Shown here piece by piece: positions 1 through 59,203 of a DNA stretch of 64,000 nt. The position numbers were made by a program, and so were the translations under genes. How positions within the stretch are numbered: position 1 is the stretch's first letter; each line of letters opens with the position of its first letter. The notes beneath the pieces were generated by a model, which had not been told where the DNA came from, made no database searches, and saw only the letters and a list, made by a program, of their open reading frames with translations. This DNA is from a virus (lineage: Duplodnaviria > Heunggongvirae > Uroviricota > Caudoviricetes), in the IMG/VR virus record IMGVR_UViG_3300037258_000931, positions 1 to 64,000 of that record. One strand, 5' to 3'.

Positions 1-108
1 CTTCGCTCAGGATGACAACCGATTTAGGTGCTCAGGATGACAGTTTTTTTCTGATCCCTGATCTCTGATCCCTGATCTCTGATCCCTGATCTCTGATAAC
101 TGATCCCT
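1..108. repeat. GGGATCAG-family element, right half (core end plus CTGATCCC arm), truncated by the window edge
   Basis: gctcaggatgaca x2, T-run, then (CTGATCCC/CTGATCTC) x6. Confidence 0.8.
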
Positions 109-195
109 GGAAACCGGGAGAAGACGATGCACAGGATGATTTTGGTCACGCCAGATTTGAAGGTGATTTTCAGGGTGGCGGTGGCCGCGAAGAAG

Positions 196-271
196 GCTGG
201 CGTAGCTCAGGTGGGAGAGCGGCTGAATCGTAATCAGCAGGTCGGGGCTTCGAGCGCCTCCGCCAGCTCCA
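196..271 (+). tRNA. tRNA-Thr (anticodon CGT)
   Basis: Cloverleaf read by eye: acceptor GCTGGCG/CGCCAGC, D-arm TAGCTCAGGTGGGAGAGC, anticodon stem GCTGA/TCAGC with loop ATCGTAA, T-loop TTCGAGC, encoded CCA. Confidence 0.7.
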
Positions 272-340
272 AATGTACGCAGCGCAACGAAGAGGATACG
301 AATCGCGCTGGCAGCGGCGAGGGATGCGCTGCGTAACCGG

Positions 341-414
341 GCCGGGATAGCTCAGTGAAAGAGCCCACCCTTGGTACGGGTGAGACCGGAGTTCAATTCT
401 CCGTCCCGGCCCCA
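341..414 (+). tRNA. tRNA-Thr (anticodon GGT)
   Basis: Acceptor GCCGGGA/TCCCGGC, D-arm GCTCAGTGAAAGAGC, anticodon stem CACCC/GGGTG loop TTGGTAC, T-arm CGGAG-TTCAATT-CTCCG, encoded CCA. Confidence 0.7.
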
Positions 415-420
415 AAGACA

Positions 421-558
421 GGTTTCAGGGATCTGGGGTCAGGGATCAGTTAGAAGCAAGAGCAAGAGCCAATGTAGGTGCTTCGGCTTCCTTTGGACGC
501 TCAGGATGACAGGTTTTTACTGATCCCTGATCCCTGATCTCCGATCTCTGATCTCTGG
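421..558. repeat. GGGATCAG-family element, full (left arm, core, right arm)
   Basis: GGGATCAG-type units, core ttagaagcaagagcaagagc...gctcaggatgacaggttttt, CTGATCCC-type units. Confidence 0.85.
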
Positions 559-571
559 TACCATTGCGGGC

Positions 572-1006
572 ATGATCGACTCGTTCACGCGGGCGCATGA
601 TTACCTCTCCAACTTTTACGGGTGTCCGGTGTTCTATAACGGCCTCTTGTTTCGCAGCGCTGAAGCCGCCTACCAGGCGCAGAAGACGGCGGACGAAAAG
701 CTGCGGGTGCGGTTTACCTACCTCCGGTCCGGCATCGCCAAGCGGGATGGGCGGCGGTTGATTCTGCGGGCCGACTGGGAAGACGTCAAGATTCAGATCA
801 TGTCGGAAGTGGTGCATGCCAAGTTTGCCCAGAACAAAGACATCTGTAATAAGCTGGTGGAGACCGGGGTGGAACACCTGGTGGAAAACAACACTTGGGG
901 AGACTGCTTTTGGGGCGTGTGCAGGGACGTGGGGCAGAACTGGCTGGGCCGGTTGCTGATGGCCGAGCGAGTGTACTGGCGGCTGCTGATTCATGCCGCG
1001 GCGTGA
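572..1006 (+). CDS. NADAR-domain protein (YbiA/DUF1768-like)
   Basis: 144 aa; motifs DYLSNFY, SAEAAYQAQK, ADWEDVK, KFAQN, LVETG..LVE, WG.G as in the NADAR/YbiA family. Confidence 0.7.
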   Translation: MIDSFTRAHDYLSNFYGCPVFYNGLLFRSAEAAYQAQKTADEKLRVRFTYLRSGIAKRDGRRLILRADWEDVKIQIMSEVVHAKFAQNKDICNKLVETGVEHLVENNTWGDCFWGVCRDVGQNWLGRLLMAERVYWRLLIHAAA

Positions 1007-1017
1007 GCGGAGACCGG

Positions 1018-1093
1018 GCCGGCGTAGCTCAACTGGCAGAGCTGCTGTTTTGTGAACAGCCCGTTGCAGGTTCGACTCCTGCCGCCGGCTCCA
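1018..1093 (+). tRNA. tRNA-Thr (anticodon TGT)
   Basis: Acceptor GCCGGCG/CGCCGGC, TAGCTCAACTGGCAGAGC D-arm, anticodon stem GCTGT/ACAGC loop TTTGTGA (G37 unusual), T-arm GCAGG-TTCGACT-CCTGC, CCA. Confidence 0.6.
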
Positions 1094-1122
1094 AAAGTTT
1101 GATGGTGCTCTTAGGTTTTTAT

Positions 1123-1198
1123 GGTGCCCGTAGCTCAATGGTAGAGCGCTCGGCTGTGGCCCGAGTCGTTGAGGGTTCAACTCCCTCCGGGCACCCCA
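1123..1198 (+). tRNA. tRNA-His (anticodon GTG) with encoded G-1
   Basis: Extra 5' G before acceptor GTGCCCG/CGGGCAC (His hallmark), anticodon stem CTCGG/CCGAG loop CTGTGGC, T-arm GAGGG-TTCAACT-CCCTC, CCA. Confidence 0.7.
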
Positions 1199-1261
1199 AT
1201 TGGAAGGAGGATCATGCCATGCCGATCAAGTAGCACGCCGCACGAAGGGGGCGGCATCGAC

Positions 1262-3544: not shown

Positions 3545-3706
3545 GAGATCAGTAGTCAGGGATCAGTTGTCAGGGGTCAGGGATCAGTTAGAAGCAAGAG
3601 CAAGAGCAAGAGCAACCGCGGGTCCTTCGGCTTCGGTCGCTTTGCTCCCTGCGCTCAGGATGACAGGTTTTTTCTGATCCCTGATCTCTGATCTCTGATC
3701 TCTGAT
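3545..3706. repeat. GGGATCAG-family element, full
   Basis: Left arm x5, canonical core, right arm x5. Confidence 0.85.
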
Positions 3707-3717
3707 ATTATGCGCGC

Positions 3718-5851: not shown

Positions 5852-6020
5852 GAGATCAGGTTTCAGGGATCAGTAGTCAGGGATCAGGGATCAGTTAGAA
5901 GCAACGGCAAAAGCAAAAGCAACCGCAGGTCCTTCGGCTCCCTCCGGTCGCTCAGGATGACAGTCGAGGCAAGGATGACAGGTTTTTTCTGATCCCTGAT
6001 CTCTGACCCCTGATCCCTGT
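5852..6020. repeat. GGGATCAG-family element, full
   Basis: Canonical arms; core with gcaaaagcaaaagcaa and duplicated aggatgaca box. Confidence 0.85.
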
Positions 6021-6032
6021 TATTATGCGGGC

Positions 6033-6536: not shown

Positions 6537-6751
6537 CAGGGGTCAGGGATCAGGGATCAGTTAAGTGCAACGGCAAAAGCAAAGGCAACCGCGGGTCCTT
6601 CGGCTCCCTCCGGTCGCTCAGGATGACAGCTCTGGGGCAGGTCGCTCGGGATGACAGCTTTTTGCTGGTCCCTGACCCCTGACCCGTGATCCCTGATCCC
6701 CGACCCCTGATCTCTGATCGCTGATCCCTGATCTCTGATCGCTGATCCCTG
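6537..6751. repeat. GGGATCAG-family element, full, extended right arm
   Basis: Core variant with gctcaggatgacagctctggggcaggtcgctcgggatgacagc; right arm about 10 units. Confidence 0.85.
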
Positions 6752-6755
6752 TTTT

Positions 6756-7237: not shown

Positions 7238-7290
7238 AGTTTCAGGGGTCAGTTGTCAGGGGTCAGTGGAAGCGAGAGCAAGAGCGCTCA
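7238..7290. repeat. GGGATCAG-family partial (left arm plus core start)
   Basis: gtttcaggggtcagttgtcaggggtcag...agcgagagcaagagc; lies just upstream of the 7300 GTG start. Confidence 0.6.
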
Positions 7291-11387: not shown

Positions 11388-11388
11388 G

Positions 11389-11450
11389 GAACAGGGGTCA
11401 GAGAACAGGTTTCAGAGAACAGAGAACAGAGATCAGAGATCAGTAGTCAG
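11389..11450. repeat. GGGATCAG-family solo left arm (degenerate)
   Basis: aacaggggtcagagaacaggtttcagagaacagagaacagagatcagagatcag. Confidence 0.6.
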
Positions 11451-11469: not shown

Positions 11470-11712
11470 ATGGCGACGATGGAGATGGAAGGGACGCTGG
11501 CGGTGCTGGACAAATCGGGCGACAGCCGCATGCAATGGAACCCCAACAGCCCGGAAGAGGTGGCCAAGGCGCGGGCTCGCTTTGACGAATTCAGAAACAA
11601 GGGCTACCTGGCCTATAAAGTGAGCCCCTCCGGTGGCCAGGGGGAAGTGATCTCGGCCTTCGATGAGGCTGCGGCGCGAATCATTCTGCATAGCCCGATG
11701 GTAGGAGGATAA
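11470..11712 (+). CDS. hypothetical protein
   Basis: 80 aa; SD GAGGAGGGACG upstream. Confidence 0.35.
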   Translation: MATMEMEGTLAVLDKSGDSRMQWNPNSPEEVAKARARFDEFRNKGYLAYKVSPSGGQGEVISAFDEAAARIILHSPMVGG

Positions 11713-11715
11713 GCG

Positions 11716-12195
11716 ATGTGTCTTTCTTCCGTCACTGAGTTGTACGACCGGCCGTCGTCGCTGATTGTCGATGGTTGGAAGTCGATCGGCGCGGCGAAAC
11801 CATCCTTCCAGCTCAGCGTGAACGGTAAAACAGCGATCCCCTTCGATGAGTGGATTACCGCAACTACCGAGCATGCTAAAGGCGGCAAGATCCGGGCCGA
11901 CGACGGCAAACACTATCCCTGCGGCTTTCACTGCTACAGCGACGAGAAGGAGTTGAAGGAACTGCAGCCAAAGAGCCGGGTGTTTGTACGCGGCATCCTT
12001 GCCCTGGGCAAGCAGAACGGAAAAGCTGTGGTGATTGCGAGCGAGATCTATCTGCCGTCGAAGCAGGATGGGTGGCCGCCGCTGGAGGCGGCCGGAGTTC
12101 CGCCGGCCGATCCCGCGCCAGGCGCCGCTGCGGGCGGCGGTCCAGCACAGGCGAAAAACAAGCTGACCCGGTTATTGGGTGGAAAGAAGCAGTGA
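11716..12195 (+). CDS. hypothetical protein
   Basis: 159 aa; tightly packed after the previous ORF; Pro/Ala/Gly-rich C-terminus. Confidence 0.4.
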   Translation: MCLSSVTELYDRPSSLIVDGWKSIGAAKPSFQLSVNGKTAIPFDEWITATTEHAKGGKIRADDGKHYPCGFHCYSDEKELKELQPKSRVFVRGILALGKQNGKAVVIASEIYLPSKQDGWPPLEAAGVPPADPAPGAAAGGGPAQAKNKLTRLLGGKKQ

Positions 12196-46677: not shown

Positions 46678-46870
46678 GAGAACAGGGATCAGAGGTCAGA
46701 GATCAGGGGTCAGGGGTCAGTTAAGAGCAAAAGCAAAAGCAAAGGCAACCGCAGGTCCTTCGACTTCGGTCGCTTTGCTCCCTGCGCTCAGGATGACAGT
46801 CGAGGTAAAGGTGACAGGTTTTTTCTGACCCCTGATCTCTGATCCCTGAAAACTGACCCCTGACCCCTGT
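46678..46870. repeat. GGGATCAG-family element, full
   Basis: Canonical; immediately upstream of ssb. Confidence 0.85.
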
Positions 46871-46886: not shown

Positions 46887-47390
46887 ATGGCCAAGAGCAT
46901 GAACAAAGCGATTCTGCTGGGCAACGTGGGCAAGGACCCCGAGATCCGCACCCTGAGCAACGGTACCAAGATAGCCACCCTGGCGCTGGCCACCAGCGAG
47001 CGCATCAAGGACAAGCAGGGCAACTGGGAGGACCGGACCGAATGGCACACGTTGGTGGCTTTTGCGCGGCTGGCCGAGGTGATCGAACAGTACGTGCGCA
47101 AGGGCAGCAAGCTGTGTATCGAGGGCCGGATCGCGACCCGGAGCTGGGACGACAAACAGTCGGGCGAGAAAAAATATGCGACCGAGATCAAGATCGACGA
47201 TCTGGTGCTTTGCGATGCCAGGGGTCAGAGATCAGAGGTCAGGGTTCAGGGATCAGGGATCAGAGATCAGGGATCAGTTGTCGGGGATCAGGGCCGCTCG
47301 GGTCAGCCCGCAGGTCAACTCGCGGGGGGGCGCGGGGGCAGCGTGGTGGATGAGCGCGACCCGACCGACGACTGGGCCGATTTCCGGTAA
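46887..47390 (+). CDS. ssb: single-stranded DNA-binding protein
   Basis: N-terminal OB fold MNKAILLGNVGKDPEIRTLSNG...WHTLVAFARLAE...ATRSW...KYATEIKIDD; linker contains an in-frame GGGATCAG tract; acidic tip DDWADF. Confidence 0.8.
   Translation: MAKSMNKAILLGNVGKDPEIRTLSNGTKIATLALATSERIKDKQGNWEDRTEWHTLVAFARLAEVIEQYVRKGSKLCIEGRIATRSWDDKQSGEKKYATEIKIDDLVLCDARGQRSEVRVQGSGIRDQGSVVGDQGRSGQPAGQLAGGRGGSVVDERDPTDDWADFR
47220..47292. repeat. GGGATCAG tract translated in frame inside ssb (linker region)
   Basis: About nine tandem units encoding RGQRSEVRVQGSGIRDQGSVVGDQG. Confidence 0.8.
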
Positions 47391-47737: not shown

Positions 47738-48436
47738 ATGACTGACCGGATGGTGGCGGGACGTATTTCGAAGCGGGCTGAGGCGAAAGACATCCGCCCC
47801 TTTTTGGACAGGATCGCGCTGTACCGGCGGGAGCTGGCCGGCAAGCCCTGCCGGCGGGTGGCGCGGGGCGAGGATCTGAGCGGGCTGCTGGCGGAGCTGG
47901 AGCGGGTGGGCCGGGGGCTCGACGGAGTGGGCATTGCCGCGCCGCAGATCGGGGTGTTTCTGCAGGTGGCGCTGCTGTTTCCAGAGATCAGGGACCAGTT
48001 GTCAGGGATCAGGGGTCAGCGATCAGGGGTCAGGAAGGGCAGGAAGGGAGCGGTCCAGCCGTCATCCGTGGTGCTGGTGAATCCGGAGATTGAGAACCTG
48101 CGCGGGAAAGACATTCTGGAGTACGAGGGATGCTTGAGCCTGCCGCCTTTCCCGGGATGCGAGTCGCACCTGCAAGCATCCAGGCGCATGGCGGAGGCGC
48201 GGGTGTGGCGCAGCGAGGTGATCGAGATCCGCAGCGGCACGGTGGACGATCCCGCGGCCGGACTGAAGCACACCTTCCGCGGCTACCTGGCGCGGATTGT
48301 GCAGCACGAGATGGATCACCTCAAGGGAGTGTTCTTTATCGACCACTGCGGGCCGATCGGCCGGGAGCAGGTGTTAAAGCGGTTTGGGGAGTATTTGAAA
48401 GCCAGGGATCAGTTGTCAGGGGTCAGGGGTCAGTGA
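47738..48436 (+). CDS. def: peptide deformylase with an in-frame repeat insertion
   Basis: Motifs GIAAPQIGV (GxGxAAxQ), EGCLSLP, HEMDHL in order; about 16 aa translated from a GGGATCAG tract between motif 1 and the beta region; C-terminus also runs into a repeat arm. Confidence 0.65.
   Translation: MTDRMVAGRISKRAEAKDIRPFLDRIALYRRELAGKPCRRVARGEDLSGLLAELERVGRGLDGVGIAAPQIGVFLQVALLFPEIRDQLSGIRGQRSGVRKGRKGAVQPSSVVLVNPEIENLRGKDILEYEGCLSLPPFPGCESHLQASRRMAEARVWRSEVIEIRSGTVDDPAAGLKHTFRGYLARIVQHEMDHLKGVFFIDHCGPIGREQVLKRFGEYLKARDQLSGVRGQ
47983..48035. repeat. GGGATCAG tract translated in frame inside def
   Basis: gagatcagggaccagttgtcagggatcaggggtcagcgatcaggggtcagg encodes EIRDQLSGIRGQRSGVR. Confidence 0.8.
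48403..48434. repeat. GGGATCAG tract forming the C-terminal codons of def
   Basis: cagggatcagttgtcaggggtcaggggtcagtga. Confidence 0.75.
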
Positions 48437-49838: not shown

Positions 49839-50207
49839 ATGGCGATGGCATGCAAAACCGGAAGTCCGTACAAGCTGTTTGTGTGGCGTTGCCAGCCGCT
49901 CTACGTGGTGATGGCTCACGCCCGGACGGTGGCCGAGGCTCGCAAGCTGGCGCTGGAAGAGTGTCGCGGAACCGGAGACGAAAGCACCCCGGTGCGCCGG
50001 CGGGCGTATATCGCTGTCGAGACTACCACCCCGGAGATTCACTACCGGGAGAATGCCGAGTTTGTGCTGACCGACTCGGCGGAGCTGGAAGAGATGGAAG
50101 CCTATGCCCGGGTGCTGGCGGAGCGAATTAGAGAACTGACCGGGATAGCCGGCATCTCGATGGAGCAGTACCGGGAAACCGCTAAGGCAGTTTTCAGGGA
50201 ACGGTAG
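49839..50207 (+). CDS. hypothetical protein
   Basis: 122 aa; ends at a full repeat element. Confidence 0.4.
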   Translation: MAMACKTGSPYKLFVWRCQPLYVVMAHARTVAEARKLALEECRGTGDESTPVRRRAYIAVETTTPEIHYRENAEFVLTDSAELEEMEAYARVLAERIRELTGIAGISMEQYRETAKAVFRER

Positions 50208-50209
50208 CC

Positions 50210-50417
50210 AGAGATCAGGGGTCAGTTATCAGGGGTCAGGGATCAGTTAGAAGCAAGAGCAAAAGCAACGGCAACCGCGGGTCCTTCGACTTCGGTCGCT
50301 CTGCTCCCTGCGCTCAGGATGACAGCCGATTTAGGTGCTCAGGATGACAGGTTTTTACTGATCCCTGATCTCTGACCCCTGATCTCTGAAACCTGATCTC
50401 TGAAATCTGATCCCTGG
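50210..50417. repeat. GGGATCAG-family element, full
   Basis: Core with gctcaggatgacagccgatttaggtgctcaggatgacagg; long right arm. Confidence 0.85.
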
Positions 50418-50433
50418 TCCCCGTGGAGACTTT

Positions 50434-51123: not shown

Positions 51124-51181
51124 GGAACAGGGGTCAGAGAACAGTTATCAGGGATCAGTTGTCAGGGGTCAGTTGTCAGGG
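51124..51181. repeat. GGGATCAG-family solo left arm
   Basis: aacaggggtcagagaacagttatcagggatcagttgtcaggggtcagttgtcaggg. Confidence 0.7.
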
Positions 51182-51970: not shown

Positions 51971-52016
51971 TCTAAGCGCATCTTGAGCGCAGGATATTTG
52001 CCGGGTGGTGGGGACC

Positions 52017-52240
52017 AGAGATCAGGGGTCAGGGGTCAGGGATCAGTTAAGAGCAAAAGCAAGTGCAAGTGCAAGAGCAAAAGCAACCGCGGGTCCTTCG
52101 GCTTCGGTCGCTTTGCTCCCTGCGCTCAGGATGACATCTCTGGGGTAGCTCGCTCAGGATGACATCTGATTTACGCGCTCAGGATGACAGGTTTTTGCTT
52201 TTCCCTGATCTCTGATCCCTGATCCCTGATCTCTGGTCCC
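52017..52240. repeat. GGGATCAG-family element, full, at the convergent strand-switch point
   Basis: Core with three gctcaggatgaca boxes; the right arm doubles as the C-terminal coding tail of the leftward serine recombinase gene. Confidence 0.85.
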
Positions 52241-52890
52241 AGCTTCCGGCTGAGAATTTTGGCGACTGTGGCATGGTGCCAGGGTTTGCCGCCGCGGCTG
52301 GGAATCCGGTCCTGGTTGAGCCAGTCGGCGATCTGGCGGGGGTTGAGACCGCCCTCGTAGACCCGGCGCATGCGGTTGAGTATCTCCAGCTCGCCAGGCT
52401 TTTCTCCATAGGCGTGGCGGCCCTCGGCGCGCTCGCCGCGGGCCTTTTTGCGCTGCCGGGCGCCGCGCAGCTTGAGCACGATCATGGCCTTGTCGTACTG
52501 GGCGATGGCGCCGAAGATCTGACGCATGAGCACTCGGGTGGGATCGGTGGAACAGAGATCCGGCTCGCAGGTGGAGATGAGCGCGTATCCGGATTTCTGA
52601 AAGTCGGCGATCATGGTTTCCTGCACCATGAGGTCGCGGGCCAGGCGATCGAGCCGCTCTATCAAAATGGTTTTTGTGCCGTTTTCTTCCAGAGCATTAA
52701 AAAGTTCGGCCAGCTTGGGACGATCTTCCAGCTCGGTACCGCCGGAGATCCCGCGCTCTTTGAAGATGCGTACGATGCGCAGATTGTGAGCGGCGCAGTA
52801 TTTGCGGATGGCGATGAACTGGCGGCGGAAGCCGTCGCCGTGGACCTGGGATTTTCCGGAGACGCGCAGGTAGGCGAAGACGGTGGTCAT
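52171..52890 (-). CDS. serine recombinase (resolvase family); C-terminal tail encoded by a repeat element
   Basis: N-terminal MTTVFAYLRVSGKSQ...with catalytic Ser, RLDRLARD, C-terminal helix-turn-helix; last about 20 aa EIRDQGSEIRE translated from a CTGATCCC tract. Confidence 0.7.
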   Translation of the reverse strand: MTTVFAYLRVSGKSQVHGDGFRRQFIAIRKYCAAHNLRIVRIFKERGISGGTELEDRPKLAELFNALEENGTKTILIERLDRLARDLMVQETMIADFQKSGYALISTCEPDLCSTDPTRVLMRQIFGAIAQYDKAMIVLKLRGARQRKKARGERAEGRHAYGEKPGELEILNRMRRVYEGGLNPRQIADWLNQDRIPSRGGKPWHHATVAKILSRKLGPEIRDQGSEIREKQKPVILSA

Positions 52891-52977
52891 GAGGTTTCTT
52901 TCTGGGCGATGCCCGGTTGGAGGGTTGATCGGTTGAGGTCTCCGATTTCCCGGTCGTAGTTGAGTCTTGAAGGGGCA

Positions 52978-53035
52978 TTGCCTCAGGGGCTAAAGCCCGT
53001 ACCCTTCACCTGAATCCCGTACCCTTCAAGCTGTA
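52978..53035. repeat. CCTCAGGGGCTAA-type hairpin-cluster element, copy 3
   Basis: GCCTCAGGGGCTAAAGCCCGTACCCTTCACCTGAATCCCGTACCCTTCAAG. Confidence 0.5.
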
Positions 53036-53065
53036 GCCGCTTTCGGTTCCCCATCTATTTTGGTG

Positions 53066-53281
53066 CTACTGCCCGGTGTCTGGCGGCTGGTCTATGTCTT
53101 CCGGGATTGCGTAGGGAATGAAGTTGGGGCTGCTGCGGCCGACGGCGTTGGCGATGCGTAGAAAGCTGCAGGCCAGCTTGCTGCCACCTTCTTTCATGGC
53201 GGCTCCGGTGGCGTAGCCCAGCAGCAGCAGCAGCCCCTCGTATTCTTCGCTGGTCAAGTTGACCTGAATGGTTTTAGTCAC
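53066..53281 (-). CDS. small hypothetical protein
   Basis: 71 aa, first of a run of short leftward ORFs. Confidence 0.3.
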   Translation of the reverse strand: MTKTIQVNLTSEEYEGLLLLLGYATGAAMKEGGSKLACSFLRIANAVGRSSPNFIPYAIPEDIDQPPDTGQ

Positions 53282-53531
53282 GGGGAAACCTCTTTTCGTT
53301 GTGCAGCCATCGGGTCCAGCTCTGGGGCTCGGTTACGCCGTCGTCTTCGGGGTCCCCGGCGACGGCTCCATGTTGCTGGGGTGGTGGGCCCGGCAGGTCA
53401 ATGTGCAGCTCGAAGCCGGGATCGTGGCGGGCCACGCTAAGGCCGAAATACTCGCTGCGGGTGCGGCAGGCTTTGAGCATCTTGTCGAAGTCGGCCAGGG
53501 GGAGCTGGCGAATGATGGGGGTGAGGTTCAT
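53274..53531 (-). CDS. small hypothetical protein
   Basis: 85 aa, overlapping neighbours. Confidence 0.3.
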   Translation of the reverse strand: MNLTPIIRQLPLADFDKMLKACRTRSEYFGLSVARHDPGFELHIDLPGPPPQQHGAVAGDPEDDGVTEPQSWTRWLHNEKRFPRD

Positions 53532-53533
53532 AG

Positions 53534-53773
53534 CTAAGCTCTCCGTTTCGATTTCGGTTGTTTGGCGCGGGCGGCGTGCACGGCTGCTTCGACTGCTTTT
53601 TTAGCCAAGCTCTCGGTCACGTAGTCGCCGATGTGAGGAACTTTGGCGCCGCGCAGAAAGGCTCCCCACTCGGCTCCGGGATCGTAGGTGGAACCATCGC
53701 AAACTACCTCCCCGACGATTTTGCCGGATGGATGCTCGACATAGCGATGCTCGGTGCGGAGGACTCGGCGCAT
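53534..53773 (-). CDS. small hypothetical protein
   Basis: 79 aa. Confidence 0.3.
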   Translation of the reverse strand: MRRVLRTEHRYVEHPSGKIVGEVVCDGSTYDPGAEWGAFLRGAKVPHIGDYVTESLAKKAVEAAVHAARAKQPKSKRRA

Positions 53774-53814
53774 CTGCTCCCATGTATGACTGCTGGTCGA
53801 AGTCTGGGTGCCGG

Positions 53815-54066
53815 TTATGATTCGAGGCTCCGTACCTGGTGAGGTTTGGGCAAGGTGAGTTTGCCGCCGGTGCCGGGCCGGTTGGCGGTATAGCGCTGGT
53901 CTTCATGGTTCCAGGTATAGCGCTTGCACCAGTTGCAGCGGGTGGGGAGGGTGGCGTCTTTAGACTCCCACGGGCGCGGCTTGCCGGTCTTGGGATCGCG
54001 GCCGGGGCAGCCGGGGAGCAGGCAGGTGCAGACCCATACGGTTTTCTTTTTCTTGAACGCAGGCAT
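53815..54066 (-). CDS. small Cys-rich zinc-ribbon protein
   Basis: 83 aa; CTCLLPGCPG...CNWCKRY. Confidence 0.35.
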   Translation of the reverse strand: MPAFKKKKTVWVCTCLLPGCPGRDPKTGKPRPWESKDATLPTRCNWCKRYTWNHEDQRYTANRPGTGGKLTLPKPHQVRSLES

Positions 54067-54094
54067 GATTTGGGGCTCCTATCAAAGCAGTTTT

Positions 54095-54152
54095 CAGAGA
54101 ACAGAGAACAGGGATCAGGTTTCAGGGAACAGGGGTCAGGGGTTAGAGATCG
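54095..54152. repeat. GGGATCAG-family solo left arm (degenerate)
   Basis: cagagaacagagaacagggatcaggtttcagggaacaggggtcaggggttagagatcgg. Confidence 0.6.
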
Positions 54153-54358
54153 GTTTTAGCATGCGCCGGGGGCAGGTATTGGCCGGAAGATTCGAGCAGT
54201 ACGGTAGCCTGCAAGGCGGTGGCGAGGTCGGGACGGAAACACATGACTTCGCCGCGCAGCCGGTCGCGCACCACGTAGCTTGCCCCCAGTGGTTCTACGG
54301 TGAAGTGAAGGGTGCCGGTTATGGGCGCGGATTCTGGGGAAGATCTGGGATTACTCAT
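54143..54358 (-). CDS. small hypothetical protein
   Basis: 72 aa from the internal ATG of the 113-aa track ORF. Confidence 0.3.
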   Translation of the reverse strand: MSNPRSSPESAPITGTLHFTVEPLGASYVVRDRLRGEVMCFRPDLATALQATVLLESSGQYLPPAHAKTDL

Positions 54359-54591
54359 TGGCTTTGATCCTTTCCGCTCCGGGCAGCGGCGGCGCCCTTG
54401 AAGCAGCCTTCGTGGGCGCGGGCTCCGTAGCCACGGTCGCGGAACTGCTGGCCAAGGGTGATGGGTTGGGCGCACAAGACGCACTCGTGCAGGGTGCGGC
54501 AGGTGCGCAGGGGAGCGAGCGCCAGGCGGTTGATCATCTTCTGGCGTTGGCGGCCGGCTTCACGGCTGGCGGACTGGGCGGCGTAGGGCAT
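54355..54591 (-). CDS. small hypothetical protein
   Basis: 79 aa from the second ATG; ATGA overlap with the downstream gene; lies just downstream of promoter motif P1. Confidence 0.3.
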   Translation of the reverse strand: MPYAAQSASREAGRQRQKMINRLALAPLRTCRTLHECVLCAQPITLGQQFRDRGYGARAHEGCFKGAAAARSGKDQSQ

Positions 54592-54601
54592 GGTGTCTCC
54601 T

Positions 54602-54630
54602 ATTGTCTCGTTTTGCCACTGCGGTGTCAA
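54602..54630 (-). promoter_or_regulatory. conserved leftward promoter/operator motif P1 (TTGACA-CCGCAGTGGCAAAACGA-GACAAT)
   Basis: The plus strand reads TTTTGCCACTGCGGTGTCAAT; one of three near-identical copies. Confidence 0.4.
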
Positions 54631-54694
54631 TGTGTCCAGTGCACAGCCGGCAGTGAACAGCGACCGGTTTCCGGTGTTGGTCCGGCTATCAAGC

Positions 54695-54741
54695 CAGGGG
54701 TCAGGGATCAGGTTTCAGGTTTCAGGGATCAGGGATCAGGC
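54695..54741. repeat. GGGATCAG-family solo left arm preceded by the GGTCCGGCTATCAAG motif
   Basis: ccaggggtcagggatcaggtttcaggtttcagggatcagggatcagg. Confidence 0.7.
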
Positions 54742-55506
54742 GTAGATGCCGCGCCAGCCGCGCGGGGATTGGATGCTGAGCATGCGGCTGCCGAGCGCCG
54801 GACACTCGCGGCGAATCTCCTGGGTATAGATTTCGTCACCGACCTGCCAGCGGGCGACCTGAACCGGCTGCTCGATGAGCGCGCTTCCCCACTTGGAGCG
54901 GAGAAACCGGCGTATCTCGACAAGACGTTTACCGGTGTGCCGAGTGGCCCAGAGGTGGCCGCATTTGTAGCCCAGCCGGCGCGCGCCTCCACTGCTTTCA
55001 AAGTGCCAGGCGCCGTGCAGGAGCCGGTCGAGTTCCGGCGCGCGATCGATCCAGCGGTAATCGCCGTCGCCCCAGGCGGCCATCCAGAAGACGGTCCACT
55101 GGGCCGGGATTACGGCGGGGATGTTCATGTCGGAATAGTTGCCACGAATGCGGCCGCTGAAGTCGAGCGCCAGGCCGTAACGGATCAAGGCCAGGTCATC
55201 GGCGTCGAACCGTTCGAGATCGCGGCGGCGGCGCAGGATGTGAGAGCTGTTGAACTGCTCGGGGCGCAGACCGGAGACGTGGATGTGAGGATTGTGGCGA
55301 CGGCGATAAAGGCCGTCTCCGATGACTCCGAGGCGGTCTACGGCGACGACGGCCCGGCGATTGTAGCCGTTGGCCTGGGCGTCGATGACCAGGGCGCAGG
55401 GAGCCGGGTAGTATTTGCTCTTGGAGCGCAGCTCGAAGACGCGGCCTTCTGCGATTTGAGAGCGCCAGGATGGACGATGCGGGATGGGGCTGATTGTGGA
55501 CGGCAT
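54736..55506 (-). CDS. hypothetical protein
   Basis: 256 aa, ordinary composition; the 439-aa opposite-strand ORF is Gly/Ala-rich and rejected. Confidence 0.4.
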   Translation of the reverse strand: MPSTISPIPHRPSWRSQIAEGRVFELRSKSKYYPAPCALVIDAQANGYNRRAVVAVDRLGVIGDGLYRRRHNPHIHVSGLRPEQFNSSHILRRRRDLERFDADDLALIRYGLALDFSGRIRGNYSDMNIPAVIPAQWTVFWMAAWGDGDYRWIDRAPELDRLLHGAWHFESSGGARRLGYKCGHLWATRHTGKRLVEIRRFLRSKWGSALIEQPVQVARWQVGDEIYTQEIRRECPALGSRMLSIQSPRGWRGIYA

Positions 55507-55540
55507 GATGGGCCTTTCTGGTTTTTGGTCCGGCTATCAA

Positions 55541-55690
55541 GACAGAGAACAGGGGTCAGGGGTCAGGGATCAGTTAAGGGCAAGTGCAAGAGCAAAAGCA
55601 ACCTCAGGTTCTTCGACTCCGGTCGCTTTGCTCCCTGCGCTCAGGATGACAGGCTTTTGCTTTTCTCTGACCCCTGACCCCTGATCCCTG
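55541..55690. repeat. GGGATCAG-family element, full (same orientation as all others although in the leftward gene block)
   Basis: Canonical arms and core; preceded by TTTTTGGTCCGGCTATCAAG. Confidence 0.85.
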
Positions 55691-55701
55691 CAAACTGCTT
55701 T

Positions 55702-56997
55702 TCAGATGCGCATGGGCATGAGCACGTAGCTGTAGCCGGGGATGGCCTCGGTTTCAAACAGGATGGCATTCTGGGCGTCTTTCATGCGCAGGGTGACCGG
55801 GTTTTTGCCGGCGGTTTTGAGAAAGTCGAGCACGTACTCGGAAGACAGGCCGGTGACGATCTCCGGGGCTGTCTGCGAATCGCTCTGCGGAGAAGTGGTT
55901 TTAGTGTCATGGGTGATGCTGGCCGGGACTTTGGCGGTGGCTTTGCCGGTCTCAGTGGATTGGGCGGAGAGAATGCAGGAGCCGTTGACCCGCCAGGTCA
56001 CAGCTCCGCTGCGCTCGTCGGCCATGCGCGCGACTTTGGCCAGGGATTTAGCCAGCTCATCGGCGGCGGGGAAGAGGGCGACGGTGTGCAGCGCATCGCG
56101 GCGGGGCATGACGGCTTCAAAGTTGGGGAACTGGCCAGCCAGCTTGCGGTTGATGAGGGTGGTACGGAGTTCGGGAACCTCCCAGAAAGCGGAGTCCTGC
56201 GTGAAGGCGATGGCCACGGGCTGCTTGCCTACGGATTTGGCCAGCCAGGCTAGGGCACAGGTGGGAATAAGGGTCTGGCAGTCGGGAGCGGCGATCTCGT
56301 GGCGGGCGAGGGCCAGGCGATTGCCGTCGGTGCCGACCAGGCTGAGTTCAGAGTTGGCCACGCGGAGCAGCGCGCCGTTGAGGGTGTAACGGGATTCCTC
56401 GTGGGAGATGGCGAAGCGGATACGGGCCAGCATCTCTTTGAGGGTGGTGCCGGAGACGGCGAAGGTTGGTTCGGGGATCTCGGGATGCTGGGGGAAGCTG
56501 TCCGGCTTCACGATGGGCAGGTCATAGAGGCAACCGCCGCCGCCTTCTTCAGGGCCGACCTGCATAGACAGAGTGGTTGTGACGCGCTGCTTTTCGATCT
56601 CGGGGCCGGGGACGTACTTGTCGTCGACGTACTGGCCGCGCTCCAACTCGGTATAAGTCTCGGTAGTTTCGACCAGCGAGAGCGTGACCAGGCCGGTTTC
56701 GCCCTTGAGCAGCATGAGCACGGTCTGGTGGGGAAGCAGGATGGGCTGGTCGGTTTCGAGGGCCGCCTCGACTTCGGTAATGGCCCACAGGTCAAGATCG
56801 GTGGAGAGCACGCGCAGGCCGGCGGGGCTGGGTTCGAGCTGGACGTGAGTCAAAACGGGGATGGTGGTTTTCTTTTCGGTGACGGCGATGTCGAGGGCGG
56901 CGCGCAGCGCGGCGGCCGGTACCAGGATGCGCTGCAGGATCGCGGTTTGGGAATTGGAGGTTTGGTTCGAGGCGGTGGTTTGGGTGCTGGAGGTCAT
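55702..56997 (-). CDS. dnaN: DNA polymerase III beta sliding clamp
   Basis: N-terminal ILQRILVPAAALRAALDIAV....IPVLTHVQLE...LRVLSTDLDL aligns with the DnaN N-terminal domain; about 370-aa core plus a Thr/Ser/Gln-rich N-terminal extension. Confidence 0.7.
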   Translation of the reverse strand: MTSSTQTTASNQTSNSQTAILQRILVPAAALRAALDIAVTEKKTTIPVLTHVQLEPSPAGLRVLSTDLDLWAITEVEAALETDQPILLPHQTVLMLLKGETGLVTLSLVETTETYTELERGQYVDDKYVPGPEIEKQRVTTTLSMQVGPEEGGGGCLYDLPIVKPDSFPQHPEIPEPTFAVSGTTLKEMLARIRFAISHEESRYTLNGALLRVANSELSLVGTDGNRLALARHEIAAPDCQTLIPTCALAWLAKSVGKQPVAIAFTQDSAFWEVPELRTTLINRKLAGQFPNFEAVMPRRDALHTVALFPAADELAKSLAKVARMADERSGAVTWRVNGSCILSAQSTETGKATAKVPASITHDTKTTSPQSDSQTAPEIVTGLSSEYVLDFLKTAGKNPVTLRMKDAQNAILFETEAIPGYSYVLMPMRI

Positions 56998-57043
56998 GGC
57001 GGGTCTCTTCTCTGCGGCGGGGCCGCGGTTGATGGGTTAGTAG

Positions 57044-57110
57044 TCAGAAATCAGGGTTCAGGGATCAGGGATCAGAGATCAGGGATCAGAGATCAGGGAT
57101 CAGAGATCAG
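57044..57110. repeat. GGGATCAG-family solo left arm (about 8 units)
   Basis: gggttcagggatcagggatcagagatcagggatcagagatcagggatcagagatcag; followed by GCGCGCTATCAAG. Confidence 0.75.
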
Positions 57111-57149
57111 AACCCCGAATTGGGCGCGCTATCAAGTAGTGAAGACCAG

Positions 57150-57497
57150 TTATCGCAAGACTAGGCAGTCGGTATATTGGCGCTGGGTTGCCGGATAGGG
57201 AGTGCCGAAGGCCCAGGCAAAGTCGTGAATGACCGACGCGTTGACAGCCGTGCCGGCGGCGAGGTCGGGGCCCATGAACACGTGGAGAGTGGTACTGCTG
57301 TGATTGGCCACGCACAGGGCCGACGCGGCCTGATCGGGAGCGGGCAGCGCGACGGTGGTGGAGGGTTGGGCCGGCGACTGCGAGCCGCGATGCGGCAACG
57401 CGATTCTAGGCAGCGACGGGAGAATGCAGATGGCCAGGAATATGGCCACGGTGAGGGCCGCCGCGCGGGGCGTTATGCGATTCAGGACGGGAGGCAT
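57150..57497 (-). CDS. small secreted protein (signal peptide)
   Basis: Hydrophobic N-terminal leader AAALTVAIFLAICILPSLP; 115 aa. Confidence 0.35.
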   Translation of the reverse strand: MPPVLNRITPRAAALTVAIFLAICILPSLPRIALPHRGSQSPAQPSTTVALPAPDQAASALCVANHSSTTLHVFMGPDLAAGTAVNASVIHDFAWAFGTPYPATQRQYTDCLVLR

Positions 57498-57764
57498 GGG
57501 TTTTTCTTTCTAGGCGCGGGGCGCCGGTTGATGGTGAGCGGTTGGGACTAGGCGAAGAATGCGGCCAGGTCAACGGGAGCGGGTGGGGGAGTTGGTCCTT
57601 ATGGGTTGATGGTTACAGCCTATTTGCGGGTCTGCCAGCAGACGCAGAAGCGACCGGACTCAGTTGGGGTTAAACGCGCCCACGGGACATCGGCTCCGAG
57701 CGTCCAGAAAAATTGCTCGGCATCCGCTCGGTTATCGAAGAATCGGGTTTGGCGAAGATGGCGA

Positions 57765-58007
57765 TTACTCATTCAGATTTTCCTGATGCGGCGTGGAACG
57801 GACGATTGCGAAGTCGCGGCGCACGATCACAGACGTAGTGCCGTCGCCGGGACCGTACAGATAGGTGTTGGGGAACGGGGAAGCGTAGCGAGAGTTTCCC
57901 GCATACTCTGCAGCGGCCTGCATGGCGGCCTCTTTAGACGGGAACTCCTTTTCAGTATCGCTATTCAGAAAATGGCAGCTCCAAGTATCTGCGTAGACGA
58001 CTGTCAA
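57765..58007 (-). CDS. small hypothetical protein
   Basis: 80 aa. Confidence 0.3.
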   Translation of the reverse strand: MTVVYADTWSCHFLNSDTEKEFPSKEAAMQAAAEYAGNSRYASPFPNTYLYGPGDGTTSVIVRRDFAIVRSTPHQENLNE

Positions 58008-58016
58008 GAGTCACCT

Positions 58017-58529
58017 CTACTTTCTGACCTGCAGAGCGCAGGCGGCGGATACGGCGTTGATGAAGACCAGCACGGCCAGTGCGGCCAGGGAGAGCGCGCG
58101 GGTGTGGCCAAAGGTAAGAATACCTTCCAGCAGGACGCAGAAGCCCGATGCTTTGAAGGCGTTGCCGAAGGCCGCTTGTCCCCACTGGAAGACGGTTAAA
58201 GCGCTGTACAGGAGACCGCCGCCGACCAGCAGCCACAGAGCGGGCATGGCCGCCACTTCAAGATGGACGATAGTCCAGGTGGCGACCGGGACAAAGCCGC
58301 CGATGACCAGGCCGATGAATCCGGCCAGCCGCGCTCCGGGAAGGAATGCGCGTTTGACCTGATGGATGACGGTCAGCCTATCAAACTGGGCAGTGCTGAT
58401 GGTGATCTGGGCGGGGCCGGGGCGGCGCGGGGAGTTGGCTGGCCGGGCCGAACCGGAGCGGCGTTTGGATCGGGGCCGCAGCGGGGCCGGGGCGGTGAGT
58501 TCGCGGGGAGCGGTGACAAGGGTTGCCAT
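58017..58529 (-). CDS. hypothetical membrane protein
   Basis: 170 aa; four predicted hydrophobic helices; preceded by the conserved leader CCAACCGGGCATCGCCCAGAAAGAA. Confidence 0.4.
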   Translation of the reverse strand: MATLVTAPRELTAPAPLRPRSKRRSGSARPANSPRRPGPAQITISTAQFDRLTVIHQVKRAFLPGARLAGFIGLVIGGFVPVATWTIVHLEVAAMPALWLLVGGGLLYSALTVFQWGQAAFGNAFKASGFCVLLEGILTFGHTRALSLAALAVLVFINAVSAACALQVRK

Positions 58530-58561
58530 AGAGCCGGTTCTTTCTGGGCGATGCCCGGTTG

Positions 58562-58622
58562 GGAGATCAGGGATCAGTTATCAGAGATCAGAGATCAGAG
58601 ATCAGGGGTCAGGGGTCAGGGA
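58562..58622. repeat. GGGATCAG-family solo left arm in the leader between P2 and the 58529 start codon
   Basis: gggagatcagggatcagttatcagagatcagagatcagagatcaggggtcaggggtcaggg. Confidence 0.75.
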
Positions 58623-58640
58623 AAAGCTACGACTGGAATC

Positions 58641-58669
58641 AGCGTAACGCATTGTCACTGCGGTGTCAA
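58641..58669 (-). promoter_or_regulatory. conserved leftward promoter/operator motif P2 (TTGACA-CCGCAGTGACAATGCGT-TACGCT)
   Basis: The plus strand reads CATTGTCACTGCGGTGTCAAT; good -35/-10 spacing of 17 nt. Confidence 0.45.
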
Positions 58670-58715
58670 TAGAATTCTGGTGATCTGGTTACCCTTTTTG
58701 GTCCGGCTATCAAGC

Positions 58716-58752
58716 CAGGGGTCACGGAACAGAGATCGGAGATCAGTTGTCG
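58716..58752. repeat. GGGATCAG-family solo left arm (degenerate) preceded by the GGTCCGGCTATCAAG motif
   Basis: ccaggggtcacggaacagagatcggagatcagttgtcgggg. Confidence 0.55.
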
Positions 58753-59105
58753 GGGCTGGGCTCCGGCGCTTGCTCGTCGGCAAAAAATCCGGGTGCGATC
58801 TGGTCCAGCTTGGCTTGCAGCTCGTCGGCAAAGGCGCTGGCGTCGTCTCCGGCCCAGTCCGCCGGGTTTTCGCCTGCCGCGCAAGCGTCACAATTGCAGG
58901 TACAGGAGCCGGTGCCGGTGCGATAGAGACTGGCCAGGCTGCCGTCGTCCCGTTGCAGCCAGGTATTGGAGTCGGGTTGAGCGTCCCAGAAGACATCGCC
59001 ATCGGAGTCGACGTACAGAGTCTCGATCATGCGCTCATGCTGCTTGATGGCGGCGGCGGCGGATTCCTCGGCGAGTTTTTCGCTGACTTGCTCACGGATG
59101 GTCAT
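58743..59105 (-). CDS. hypothetical acidic protein
   Basis: 120 aa; CTCNCDAC motif. Confidence 0.35.
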   Translation of the reverse strand: MTIREQVSEKLAEESAAAAIKQHERMIETLYVDSDGDVFWDAQPDSNTWLQRDDGSLASLYRTGTGSCTCNCDACAAGENPADWAGDDASAFADELQAKLDQIAPGFFADEQAPEPSPDN

Positions 59106-59157
59106 ACTGCTTTTCCTTTCCGGTGCGGTTGCGGGTTTTTGGTCCGGCTATCAAGAC

Positions 59158-59203
59158 GGGGATCAGAGAACAGGTTTCAGGGATCAGGGATCAGGGATCA
59201 GAG
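59158..59203. repeat. GGGATCAG-family solo left arm preceded by the GGTCCGGCTATCAAG motif
   Basis: gggatcagagaacaggtttcagggatcagggatcagggatcagagg. Confidence 0.7.

Follow-up and report, generated by a model that had tools for sequence, protein, structure and literature searches.

A mosaic intergenic repeat of heptamer arrays and a REP-like tagged palindrome in a Caudoviricetes genome

Introduction

The subject of this work is a composite repeat element that recurs along a 64,000-nucleotide (nt) stretch of viral DNA (Caudoviricetes; IMG/VR record IMGVR_UViG_3300037258_000931, positions 1 to 64,000; hereafter the window) and in which two inverted arrays of a heptamer enclose a core with a small tagged palindrome. 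Repeats that resemble one or the other of these components are known from bacterial chromosomes, and the STRR sequences of cyanobacteria were reportedly described by Mazel in 1990. STRRs are 7-bp repeats that form hairpins between genes and have no assigned function; it has been proposed that these hairpins stabilise the transcripts of cyanobacterial genes (PMC2670836). Repeats of the heptamer TAACTGA (equivalent to CTGATAA) occur in Beggiatoaceae, Cyanobacteria and Bacteroidetes (PMC4679880), and heptanucleotide simple-sequence repeats are covered by Mrazek (2007), in so far as that work is cited in PMC4679880. A different kind of repeat is represented by the CGTC/TGTC-tagged REPs, which combine the tag with a stem that starts with A-T pairs, frequently form inverted dimers and have no dedicated transposase. 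They are mostly located near the 3' ends of upstream open reading frames (ORFs), where they are thought to act as RNA; larger palindromes may enclose them, and some copies lie within genes for replication and repair (PMC3733652). The NTS of Neisseria, CGTCATTCCCGCG..GCGGGAATC, is bound and cut solely as single-stranded DNA and on one strand only, by the small GIY-YIG nuclease SsnA (PMC11893778).

Judged by its sequence, the element in the window is an intergenic mosaic of these two known bacterial repeat kinds, STRR-like heptamers and a TGTC-tagged REP-like palindrome, and not a new system. An initial sequence-only reading of positions 1 to 59,203 had not recognised the family; both building blocks have described relatives, namely the STRR and TAACTGA heptamers for the arrays and the CGTC/TGTC REPs and Neisseria NTS for the core. 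The explanation that we favour, with evenly balanced confidence, is that of an invasive, non-autonomous mosaic repeat that spreads at the DNA level, probably via single-stranded hairpins during replication. Spread at the DNA level is preferred because copies were gained relative to a syntenic relative, have invaded coding sequences, possess unmatched arms and share a DNA-strand polarity.

Architecture and catalogue of the element

The arrays are built of a tandem heptamer, RGRTCAG in left and CTGAYCY in right arrays, in place of the 8-nt unit originally described, for which a tandem 8-mer search gave 0 matches. The general form of the heptamer is NNN(T/A)CAG, mainly GGGATCAG or GGGGTCAG, with variant units (GTTTCAG, TTGTCAG, TAGTCAG, AGAACAG) mixed in; arrays comprise 2-10 units at 7-nt spacing, and the (T)CAG that returns every 7 nt is their best-kept part. 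CTGATCYCTGATCY occurs 122 times against 0.10 expected, and the box GCTCAGGATGACAGG (allowing up to 2 mismatches) was found 26 times, on the plus strand every time, against 0.13 expected. In a full copy, the left array (3-7 units) leads into TTAGAAG and (GCAAGA)3-6; next come CCGCGGGTCCTTCGRC, to which TTCGGTCGCTTTGCTCCCTKC may be added, between one and three GCTCAGGATGACAGG boxes at a spacing of 25-28 nt, a T5-7 run accompanied in some copies by GCTTTTGCTTTTC, and a right array of 3-9 units. The core unit occupies the apical loop of the palindrome that the two inverted heptamer arrays form, and the A/G-rich (GCAAGA)n tract connects the core palindrome to the left array. Of the structured core initially put at about 90 bp, all parts were found again, i.e. 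(GCAAGA)n, the CCGCGGGTCCTTCGG segment, one to three boxes and the T run (T5-7), whereas the length did not hold: cores measure 55-160 nt and belong to a short and a long subtype, which are dispersed along the window. The numbers of heptamers, hexamers and boxes also vary from copy to copy.

The catalogue below comprises 18 core-bearing copies and 17 solo arrays, about 35 in total, which bears out the earlier count of about 19 full and 16 solo copies. Sixteen core-bearing copies are complete (left array, core, right array), one is truncated by the window start and one has a left array and core without a right arm; the solo arrays are of the left type in 16 cases and of the right type in one. 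Left arrays start 0-13 nt past a stop codon or tRNA 3' end, and right arrays stop 0-27 nt ahead of the next start codon or tRNA. Since arrays thus reach from the upstream stop or tRNA to the next start or tRNA, the elements take up whole spacers. The impression that copies punctuate nearly every gap was overstated: about 35 of the roughly 100 gaps in positions 1-59203 are occupied, about a third, several arrays lie inside ORFs, and there is no copy from 59202 to 73877, the next 14.7 kb.

1-113, plus strand: full copy cut by the window start; boxes at 5-19 and 30-44, T7 run, right array at 51-113
415-561, plus strand: full copy with short core, directly adjoining the tRNA-Thr 3' end (414); 10 nt separate it from the NADAR gene
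3546-3708, plus strand: full copy with long core; begins 10 nt past tRNA-Pro and ends 9 nt before an ATG at 3718
5853-6023, plus strand: full copy with short core, after tRNA-Lys
6540-6755, plus strand: full copy with two boxes between tRNA-Lys (6530) and tRNA-Arg (6756); the right array abuts the tRNA 5' end
7239-7266, plus strand: solo left array, 13 nt past tRNA-Val
11388-11450, plus strand: solo left array of 9 units, starting at the base right after a stop codon
24848-24896, plus strand: solo left array, 6 nt past a stop codon
25540-25738, plus strand: two-box full copy that precedes the primase-helicase gene, its place in the relative L072 being taken by a 70-amino-acid (aa) ORF
27347-27374, plus strand: 28-nt solo left array within the primase-helicase ORF, in its 3' part; the stretch homologous to L072 ends at 27339
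27574-27594, plus strand: solo left array of 3 units, 6 nt past the primase stop; L072 has a proto-array at the same junction
28647-28688, plus strand: solo left array between two genes conserved in L072
29600-29700, plus strand: left array and short core without right array; box variant GTTCAGGATGACAGG
30109-30296, plus strand: full copy with long core, upstream of the SPFH gene
33657-33782, plus strand: full copy with degenerate core and no box, at the left edge of the insertion carrying the GIY-YIG gene
34296-34323, plus strand: sole solo right array, preceded by a hairpin and T run, at the right edge of the GIY-YIG insertion
34571-34752, plus strand: full copy with long core
35293-35439, plus strand: full copy with short core
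36066-36282, plus strand: full copy with two boxes; the first box GCTCAGAATGAC pairs with GGTTCTTCG, a compensatory change in the core stem
37278-37481, plus strand: full copy with two boxes; right side GCTTTTGCTTTTC, complementary to the hexamer repeats
39954-40204, plus strand: two-box full copy with an additional hairpin, abutting the 3' end of a minus-strand resolvase gene
46679-46866, plus strand: full copy upstream of the SSB gene
47215-47277, plus strand: left array of 9 units (63 nt, in frame) encoding part of the SSB disordered linker
47978-48033, plus strand: left array inside the peptide deformylase gene, residues 88-108
48399-48433, plus strand: left array encoding the peptide deformylase C-terminus
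50205-50420, plus strand: full copy with two boxes
51124-51179, plus strand: solo left array that directly follows a stop codon and leaves 10 nt to the next start
52012-52239, plus strand: full copy with three boxes, located where the rightward and leftward gene blocks meet
54091-54139, plus strand: solo array of the leftward block; the plus strand is G-rich and the gene sense strand reads CTGAYCY
54691-54739, plus strand: solo array in the leftward block, overlapping the stop of the upstream minus-strand gene and followed by CTTGATAGCCGGACCAACAC on the minus strand
55539-55687, plus strand: full copy in plus orientation in the leftward block, flanked by the dnaN stop and the minus-strand gene that comes next
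57041-57110, plus strand: solo array of 10 units, 43 nt upstream of the dnaN start
58564-58619, plus strand: solo array in the leftward block
58716-58755, plus strand: degenerate solo array adjoining the CTTGATAGCCGGACCAAAAA motif
59160-59201, plus strand: last solo array, overlapping the stop of a minus-strand gene

An origin of the element from collapsed or chimeric low-complexity reads, a concern raised at the outset, has a negligible probability. Repeats do break short-read contigs, and the contigs of the Logan assembly of run SRR11832711 end within them, so that the unit counts of single arrays could be slightly off. This assembly is, however, independent and 100% identical to positions 25623-30148 and 59172-64000, including four arrays and parts of two full copies, and its agreement shows that the element is not an assembly artefact; furthermore, the copies differ in sequence, subtype and flanks, and the composite and its parts are also present in unrelated public contigs and genomes.

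Relation to known repeat families

Like the STRRs and other heptanucleotide repeats, the arrays are head-to-tail repeats of 7 nt, are mostly intergenic and, where inverted, are able to form hairpins between operon genes; in both cases some lie inside genes or RNA genes, copy number is variable and no function has been assigned. The differences concern, above all, the units, which are CCCCAGT, TTGGTCA and CAACAGT in STRRs and RGRTCAG/CTGAYCY here: no unit identity to STRR1-3 or to TAACTGA was found, and the latter shares just the CTGA tetranucleotide. In addition, STRRs are cyanobacterial, whereas the arrays of the window stand in a phage-like genome, have counterparts in Acidobacteriota, Planctomycetota and Chloroflexota, are coupled to a tagged palindrome and have a single strand polarity. 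The TAACTGA repeats (MacGregor, 2015; PMC4679880) share further traits with the arrays, being CTGA-containing heptamers of 2-10 units in spacers beside start codons, with stops in three frames in the CTGA-type orientation and a patchy occurrence across phyla that suggests horizontal spread. Those of Beggiatoaceae are almost all direct, 'forward' and placed just upstream of starts; the window arrays, in contrast, follow the DNA strand and not the gene in their polarity, begin at the upstream stop and are paired inverted in half of the cases.

Heptamer arrays of this kind are present in hundreds of bacterial metagenome-assembled genomes. Beyond the window, arrays of at least three CAGGGRT units were detected at no fewer than 120 sites in a bacterial species collection. 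Among the matches listed, the array-bearing genomes belong mostly to Acidobacteriota, Planctomycetota and Chloroflexota, and many arrays form inverted pairs around unrelated spacers of 11-200 nt. Some Acidobacteriaceae loci combine arrays, box units and GCAA-type repeats, the module of left array, hexamers and core is also present in an IMG/VR contig without genes in common with the window, and a few metagenome contigs carry a left array plus TTAGAAGCAA ahead of ordinary hairpins. As the window shares no genes with the other composite-bearing contigs (L070, L071, L083, L004, L060, L085 and L086), the composite occurs in unrelated genomes. A megablast search of INPHARED with the window gave no match to a known phage, and a literature search by core sequence strings returned unrelated primer matches only.

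On the minus strand, the core reads (T/C)GTC-ATCCTGAGC...CGAAGGAC-C. Its head, [CT]GTCAT[CT]C[CT]GAGC, is found 25 times on the minus and 0 times on the plus strand, with the CGTC variant of the tag in two copies (25665 and 40093), and in the window the stem has 5 bp around 30-50 nt. These five pairs covary across loci (ATCCT/AGGAT in 31, GTCCT/AGGAT in 18, ATTCT/AGAAT in 11 and ATTCC/GGAAT in 2), one window copy carries the compensatory pair GGTTC..AGAAT and two have a U-G intermediate; the covariation argues that the core unit forms a stem in single-stranded nucleic acid. Minimal units outside the window have the form ATTCTGAGC-GAA-GCGAAGAAT, with two G-A mismatches, a 3-nt loop and the tail CC(G). 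Many IMG/VR contigs contain the core box without heptamers, often as the second half of an inverted dimer, GTCATTCTGAGCG..GAGTCGAAGAATC ... GATCCTTCGAC..GCTCAGGATGAC.

These features can be set beside those of the CGTC/TGTC REPs, including Neisseria dRS3/NTS and Rickettsia RPE-4/6 (Di Nocera, 2013; PMC3733652), and of the Ssn-related motifs (Chenal, 2025; PMC11893778). Shared are the unpaired (C/T)GTC tag at one end of the palindrome, a stem bounded by A-T pairs (the first two positions, backed by covariation) and the C that follows, and an oriented, strand-specific hairpin would be expected as the active form here as well. Inverted dimers (in this case in other contigs), a position near the 3' end of the upstream ORF, nesting in palindromes and occurrence in replication and repair genes are further common traits. 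On the other hand, the box half is repeated one to three times without a partner in the window, and no cd10448-type Ssn or RAYT gene was found there among the proteins scanned. The core has the layout of a tagged REP or NTS and is a putative member of that family at most. A RAYT-REPIN pair, defined by a GTAG tag and a Y1 gene, does not apply, the tag being TGTC and no Y1 transposase having been found among about 50 window proteins scanned. The one GIY-YIG protein of the window (33783-34199, 138 aa) is flanked by elements, with neighbouring copies that lack the box, and is closest to the I-TevI catalytic domain and TIGR01453; this resemblance and the 0 matches to the SRM pattern speak against a link to Ssn.

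Several other classes resemble the element in part. Like the BIMEs of E. coli and the NIMEs of Neisseria, it fills spacers with variable mixes of small palindromes and short repeats, yet the unit families are others, the replicon is phage-like and one polarity is shared. The inverted arrays could serve as terminal repeats of a MITE, of which no parent element was found. Among phage systems, the PeSL cassettes of T4-type phages (PMC2839356, PMC4122927) are the nearest analogue by distribution: they are phage-borne, multi-copy, co-oriented spacer cassettes with a stem-loop, and they lie in plastic regions rich in small accessory genes, beside genes that differ between relatives. PeSLs, however, contain a strong sigma-70 promoter and a terminator, whereas the copies in the window, in which no promoter was found, have no U tract after the stem and are unrelated in sequence; a classification as PeSL cassettes was rejected for want of a promoter-like site in the elements. 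The RNase III sites of T7-like phages also form long, imperfect hairpins that separate the cistrons of a transcription unit with a common orientation; each of them, however, has its own sequence of about 60 nt, which relatives share and which contains no tandem repeats. With stems of 20-45 bp in intercistronic positions, the copies agree in length and location with a T7-type RNase III site, and cleavage would be plausible on geometric grounds. As to integrons, the sole tyrosine recombinase scores 21 bits against a TIGR02249 cut-off of 265, and no attC core sites (RYYYAAC / GTTRRRY) were found, junctions of the GTTAGAA type fitting in part only; this class was also rejected.

Gain of copies in the window lineage

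A syntenic relative is available in the form of two IMG/VR contigs (L072 and L073), which are collinear with the window between 15.7 and 42 kb, bear CRISPR arrays of a related repeat and encode a primase-helicase that is 72% identical to its counterpart. They contain no heptamer array and no box, and this includes all orthologous junctions, so that the comparison of related phages proposed in the sequence-only reading does reveal a difference in the presence of copies. Downstream of the primase gene, L072 reads TAG AGAGCAG AGAGCAG AG ATG, a proto-array, where the window has a 3-unit array; at another conserved junction, a spacer of 26 nt in L072 compares with about 100 nt of array in the window (28647 region); and genes that are adjacent in L072 are separated in the window by an element, the GIY-YIG gene and a solo right array. 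Similarity between the two primases ends at 27339, 8 nt before the 28-nt array, and beyond this array the window ORF has a different tail. Two copies that lie 33 kb apart, at 39954 and 6537, are 93% identical over 122 nt. Such distant near-identical copies, together with the dispersed core subtypes, suggest that whole units were copied rather than grown independently in place. Judging from these junctions, the window lineage gained its copies after the split from the syntenic relative, and the suggestion of a MITE-like mobile sequence fits both the absence from the relative and the near-identity of distant copies.

Copies settle wherever the sequence tolerates them, i.e. in spacers, in a disordered linker, in an enzyme loop and at a gene 3' end. 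The 63-nt array in the SSB gene encodes part of the disordered linker of the protein, the 3' end of the primase-helicase ORF carries an array (27347-27374), and in peptide deformylase (47738-48436) about 21 residues (88-108) are added between conserved blocks, without a counterpart in solved deformylases. Arrays within genes are found solely in plus-strand genes, since only the left-type orientation is stop-free and CTGA units give TGA in all three frames. The array-derived peptides of the deformylase read EIRDQLSGIRGQRSGVR.. and, at the C-terminus, ..RDQLSGVRGQ.

The region downstream of the primase differs between the two genomes in other respects. L072 contains at 11634-13028 a 464-aa ORF with the sequence SPPYWGL, which we take to be a motif of DNA methyltransferases, and the window has two small unrelated ORFs at this place; the differing ORFs mark this region as a variable slot. 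For the SPFH protein of the window, no relative was found in IMG/VR, and an exact look-up of dnaN yielded no recorded entry.

Strand polarity

According to a gene map based on codon bias, the window carries plus-strand genes up to about 51970 and minus-strand genes from 52171 on, and the Logan extension shows that the leftward block continues to about 68.3 kb. All cores have the same DNA-strand polarity regardless of gene direction, and 16 of the 17 solo arrays are G-rich on the plus strand, including all seven of the leftward block, where the sense strand of the genes shows them as CTGAYCY, beginning at the stop of the upstream gene. Only one full copy lies clearly within the leftward block (55539-55687, antisense to its neighbours), the copy at 52012-52239 being placed at the convergent junction, and an argument from orientation therefore rests chiefly on the solo arrays. 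The earlier proposal that a uniform orientation implies a DNA-level or strand-specific role is thus sustained as regards polarity, which extends to the leftward arrays, and has thinner evidence from cores, with a single full copy clearly in that block.

Outside the elements, GC skew is +0.15 for the rightward and +0.17 for the leftward block, whereas the sign of AT skew reverses. A constant GC skew combined with a flipping AT skew indicates that element polarity parallels a strand asymmetry that is non-transcriptional. In the leftward block (52171-64000 plus contig L213 to about 68.3 kb), coding strands are C-rich, and the skew of this block is suggestive of a strand bias tied to replication and stronger than the effect of transcription. 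Among 23 viral contigs with at least two boxes, 19 have the box on the G-rich strand; bacterial solo arrays occur in all arrangements relative to genes and have a weak link to local GC skew (81:53). Single GGRTCAG sequences outside arrays number one on the plus and 11 on the minus strand. Given this lack of plus-strand enrichment, the heptamer was rejected as a Chi-like or KOPS-like polar motif, and the packaging signal considered earlier does not agree with the absence of any packaging, Chi-like or KOPS-like single-motif skew outside arrays.

Folding of the copies

Folding of the full copies, proposed in the sequence-only reading as a check, yields long imperfect hairpins. The RNA of the plus strand at 3553-3712 reaches -82.7 kcal/mol (z = -7.9), compared with -65.0 for the minus strand. 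As had been claimed, the arms are reverse-complementary tandem arrays; the predicted stems measure 20-45 bp, as a transcript or as a single DNA strand, where 20-40 bp had been expected. The plus-strand fold is the more stable one in 13 of 16 full copies, and the outer stems of these 16 copies contain 48 G-U pairs on the plus and 17 on the minus strand. The two arms of a copy, however, show no selection for mutual pairing and do not co-evolve: arms of the same copy average -52.3 kcal/mol versus -53.6 for arms combined across copies (permutation p = 0.83), and the lengths of left and right arms do not match (r = -0.54).

The T run is positioned 5' of the right arm, inside the big hairpin, where it pairs with the TTAGAAG/(GCAAGA)n side. 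A terminator role, envisaged earlier, is for this reason not that of a classical intrinsic terminator, and a consensus scan calls no site at the elements; rho-independent terminators were rejected, as the copies lack the succession of hairpin and U tract and the scan gave no excess of terminator-like sites. A promoter scan found no sigma-70-like site within the elements, and in Rfam only tRNAs were retrieved at gathering thresholds, sub-threshold matches being chance miRNA-like hairpins only. Hammerhead, K-turn and T-loop readings of the core, judged by eye, were rejected since the conserved positions misfit. As speculation, array units might pair with the 3' tail of 16S rRNA (SD-like or anti-SD-like), the hexamers might hold an (ARN)n motif for Hfq, and GGG-rich arrays might form G-quadruplexes.

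Interpretation

Under the favoured explanation of an invasive repeat, copies would spread by copy-and-paste or gene conversion, followed by slippage, and the intermediate would probably be a hairpin in single-stranded DNA that is exposed asymmetrically at the replication fork. Mobilisation may resemble that of REP/RAYT, IS200/IS605 or NTS/Ssn, by a host enzyme or a candidate phage enzyme, and the uniform polarity and constant positive GC skew would share one cause. Since the copies lie within polycistronic units, their transcripts would fold into the stems of 20-45 bp, probably as secondary intercistronic processing or stabilising structures. Several points weigh against this explanation. No Y1/RAYT or Ssn-type protein was found among the approximately 50 window proteins scanned, a scan that was not exhaustive, and no target-site duplication is definable, the array ends being fuzzy. 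The published SRM pattern, HGTCWYN(0-2)YYVSBRHN(0-5)WNVSBRGN(0-2)RNCYNB, has 0 matches on either strand. The window cores also lack the stem of 8-9 bp, the 4-5 nt loop and the short CCA-like tail of the tagged REPs, their stem of 5 bp being combined with conserved GAGCG/UCGAC interior strands and a long insert. The comparison involves a single, fairly distant syntenic relative, in whose lineage copies may conceivably have been lost, and the replication direction is inferred from GC skew alone. Finally, the exact fit between stop or tRNA and start, the G-U-rich plus-strand folds and a box that is strongly conserved in unrelated genomes are equally compatible with a selected RNA function.

Such a function, which is possible although we consider it rather unlikely, would explain the abundance of the copies by stems in long polycistronic early or tRNA transcripts that are cut by host RNase III or block 3' exonucleases, and that separate cistrons and tRNAs and set stability and translation in the manner of T7 RNase III sites and intercistronic REPs. 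The placement of left arrays 0-13 nt past stops or tRNAs and of right arrays 0-27 nt before the next start or tRNA agrees with this, as do the very stable folds (z = -7.9), the advantage of the plus-strand RNA in 13 of 16 copies with its G-U pairs (48 versus 17) and a core stem with G-U pairs in plus orientation and one compensatory copy (GGTTC..AGAAT). Precedents are the transcript stabilisation proposed for STRRs (PMC2670836) and the supposed action as RNA of REPs near ORF 3' ends (PMC3733652). The G-U excess may, however, partly stem from the G-rich plus strand, half of the loci are solo arrays unable to form a hairpin, and the leftward-block arrays and one full copy are antisense to genes. 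Arms have neither copy-specific complementarity nor matching lengths, some arrays lie within coding sequence, the syntenic relative manages without the elements and no Rfam family matches.

The copies might also be cassettes for recombination, whose dispersed homology moves the flanked small genes as in PeSLs, or hairpin sites like attC; this is improbable. Copies are confined to a plastic region of tRNA, replication and accessory genes and are missing from the next 14.7 kb, they flank a gene run at 34.7-38 kb without counterpart in L072, and the succession of gene and palindrome has the geometry of integron cassettes, with PeSLs as a precedent (PMC2839356). The GIY-YIG gene, absent from L072, has an element on its left and the solo right array on its right, but it is itself of a mobile homing-endonuclease type, which explains that insertion. 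Copies also occur within genes and between genes that are neighbours in the relative; the element has no sigma-70-like promoter, the window has no attC core sites, its one tyrosine recombinase remains at 21 bits against the integron-integrase cut-off of 265, and recombination could be a consequence of the repeats and not their reason. More improbable still are polar DNA signals, i.e. DnaG-type priming sites (GTC on the plus or CTG on the minus strand every 7 nt), Chi-like protection or packaging orientation. Recognition sequences are GGGTC or TGGTC for the primase of T7 and CTG for DnaG of E. coli; conservation within the unit is highest at CAG/CTG, and the gene at 25759-27567 specifies a primase-helicase that has a CHC2 zinc finger; array polarity is, moreover, uniform, independent of transcription and parallel to GC skew. 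These signals are at odds with the 1:11 distribution of GGRTCAG between plus and minus strand outside arrays, the lack of copies in the adjacent 14.7 kb and in a relative whose primase is 72% identical, the reverse polarity of the right arms, and the bacterial arrays, which in many phyla are found in both orientations relative to genes with a weak link to GC skew (81:53).

A further reading, which we regard as unlikely, is that the TGTC hairpins, displayed in the loops of heptamer palindromes and all on one strand, are oriented single-stranded DNA sites for a strand-specific nuclease or recombinase (Ssn-like, RAYT-like or other) of host or phage. If true, the phage would use or evade such an enzyme for replication-coupled recombination, cassette exchange or resistance to a defence that targets single-stranded DNA, and the hairpins would be a phage counterpart of NTS-Ssn or attC-IntI, which would also explain the polarity shared with GC skew. 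Bacterial chromosomes abound in REP-like palindromes and heptamer repeats, which count among their most frequent features without an explanation; reports of them from phages are rare. A recent dense expansion in a small replicon, together with an element-free relative, makes insertion sites directly readable, including those in SSB, peptide deformylase and primase. That a tagged palindrome is nested within the loop of a heptamer one favours the view that hairpin loops are the target of such units, and a strict polarity uncoupled from transcription bears on spread through single-stranded DNA at the replication fork. The repeat families shared with genomes of the Acidobacteriota type provide a host clue for a phage that carries CRISPR-Cas12. 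On the practical side, short-read assemblies break up at the repeats, and spurious or extended ORFs arise from them.

Gene context and further observations

The window encodes ERF, a tyrosine recombinase, primase-helicase, SPFH, DnaN, SSB, NADAR and peptide deformylase, as well as two resolvases, one HNH and one GIY-YIG protein. Eighteen tRNA genes lie between 196 and 9757 among small ORFs and repeat elements, and at several of them an array begins 0-13 nt from the encoded CCA end. At 13450-16935, a 745-aa Cas12/TnpB-like ORF is directly followed by a CRISPR array of 17 degenerate repeats of about 37 nt with a period of 71-72 nt. The protein contains a TNB domain similar to that of Cas12f1 and matches Cas12m best in the PDB, and the NCBIfam model guided_TnpB scores below its cut-off; L072 contains two CRISPR arrays with a related repeat. 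Far from the array, at 45979-46099, there are two orphan 3' halves of the CRISPR repeat (..AAGTGCACTGGGCAAGTGCAAC), which could be a mini-array or solitary units.

Free-standing genes of the homing-endonuclease type are the I-TevI-like GIY-YIG gene (33783-34199, an insertion relative to L072) and the HNH gene (38944-39588). The two serine recombinase (resolvase) genes, at 40211-40843 and 52171-52890 on the minus strand, adjoin with their 3' ends the right arm of one full copy each, and the first of them is conserved in L072, which is without the repeat. In four spacers of the leftward block, the 20-nt motif CTTGATAGCCGGACCAAAAA follows a heptamer array on the minus strand, oriented with the genes (54674-54693, 55522-55541, 58695-58714 and 59136-59155). 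TTGACACCGCAGTGRCAA is present three times on the minus strand (54613-54630, 58652-58669 and 63455-63472), at 54613 with GACAAT after a 17-nt spacer, and these repeats look like sigma-70-type promoters of the leftward genes. A 42-nt sequence unrelated to the main element, GGGCTAAAGCCCGTACCCTTCACCTGAA.., is found at 39637-39698 and again, 13 kb away and with 95% identity, at 52987-53028.

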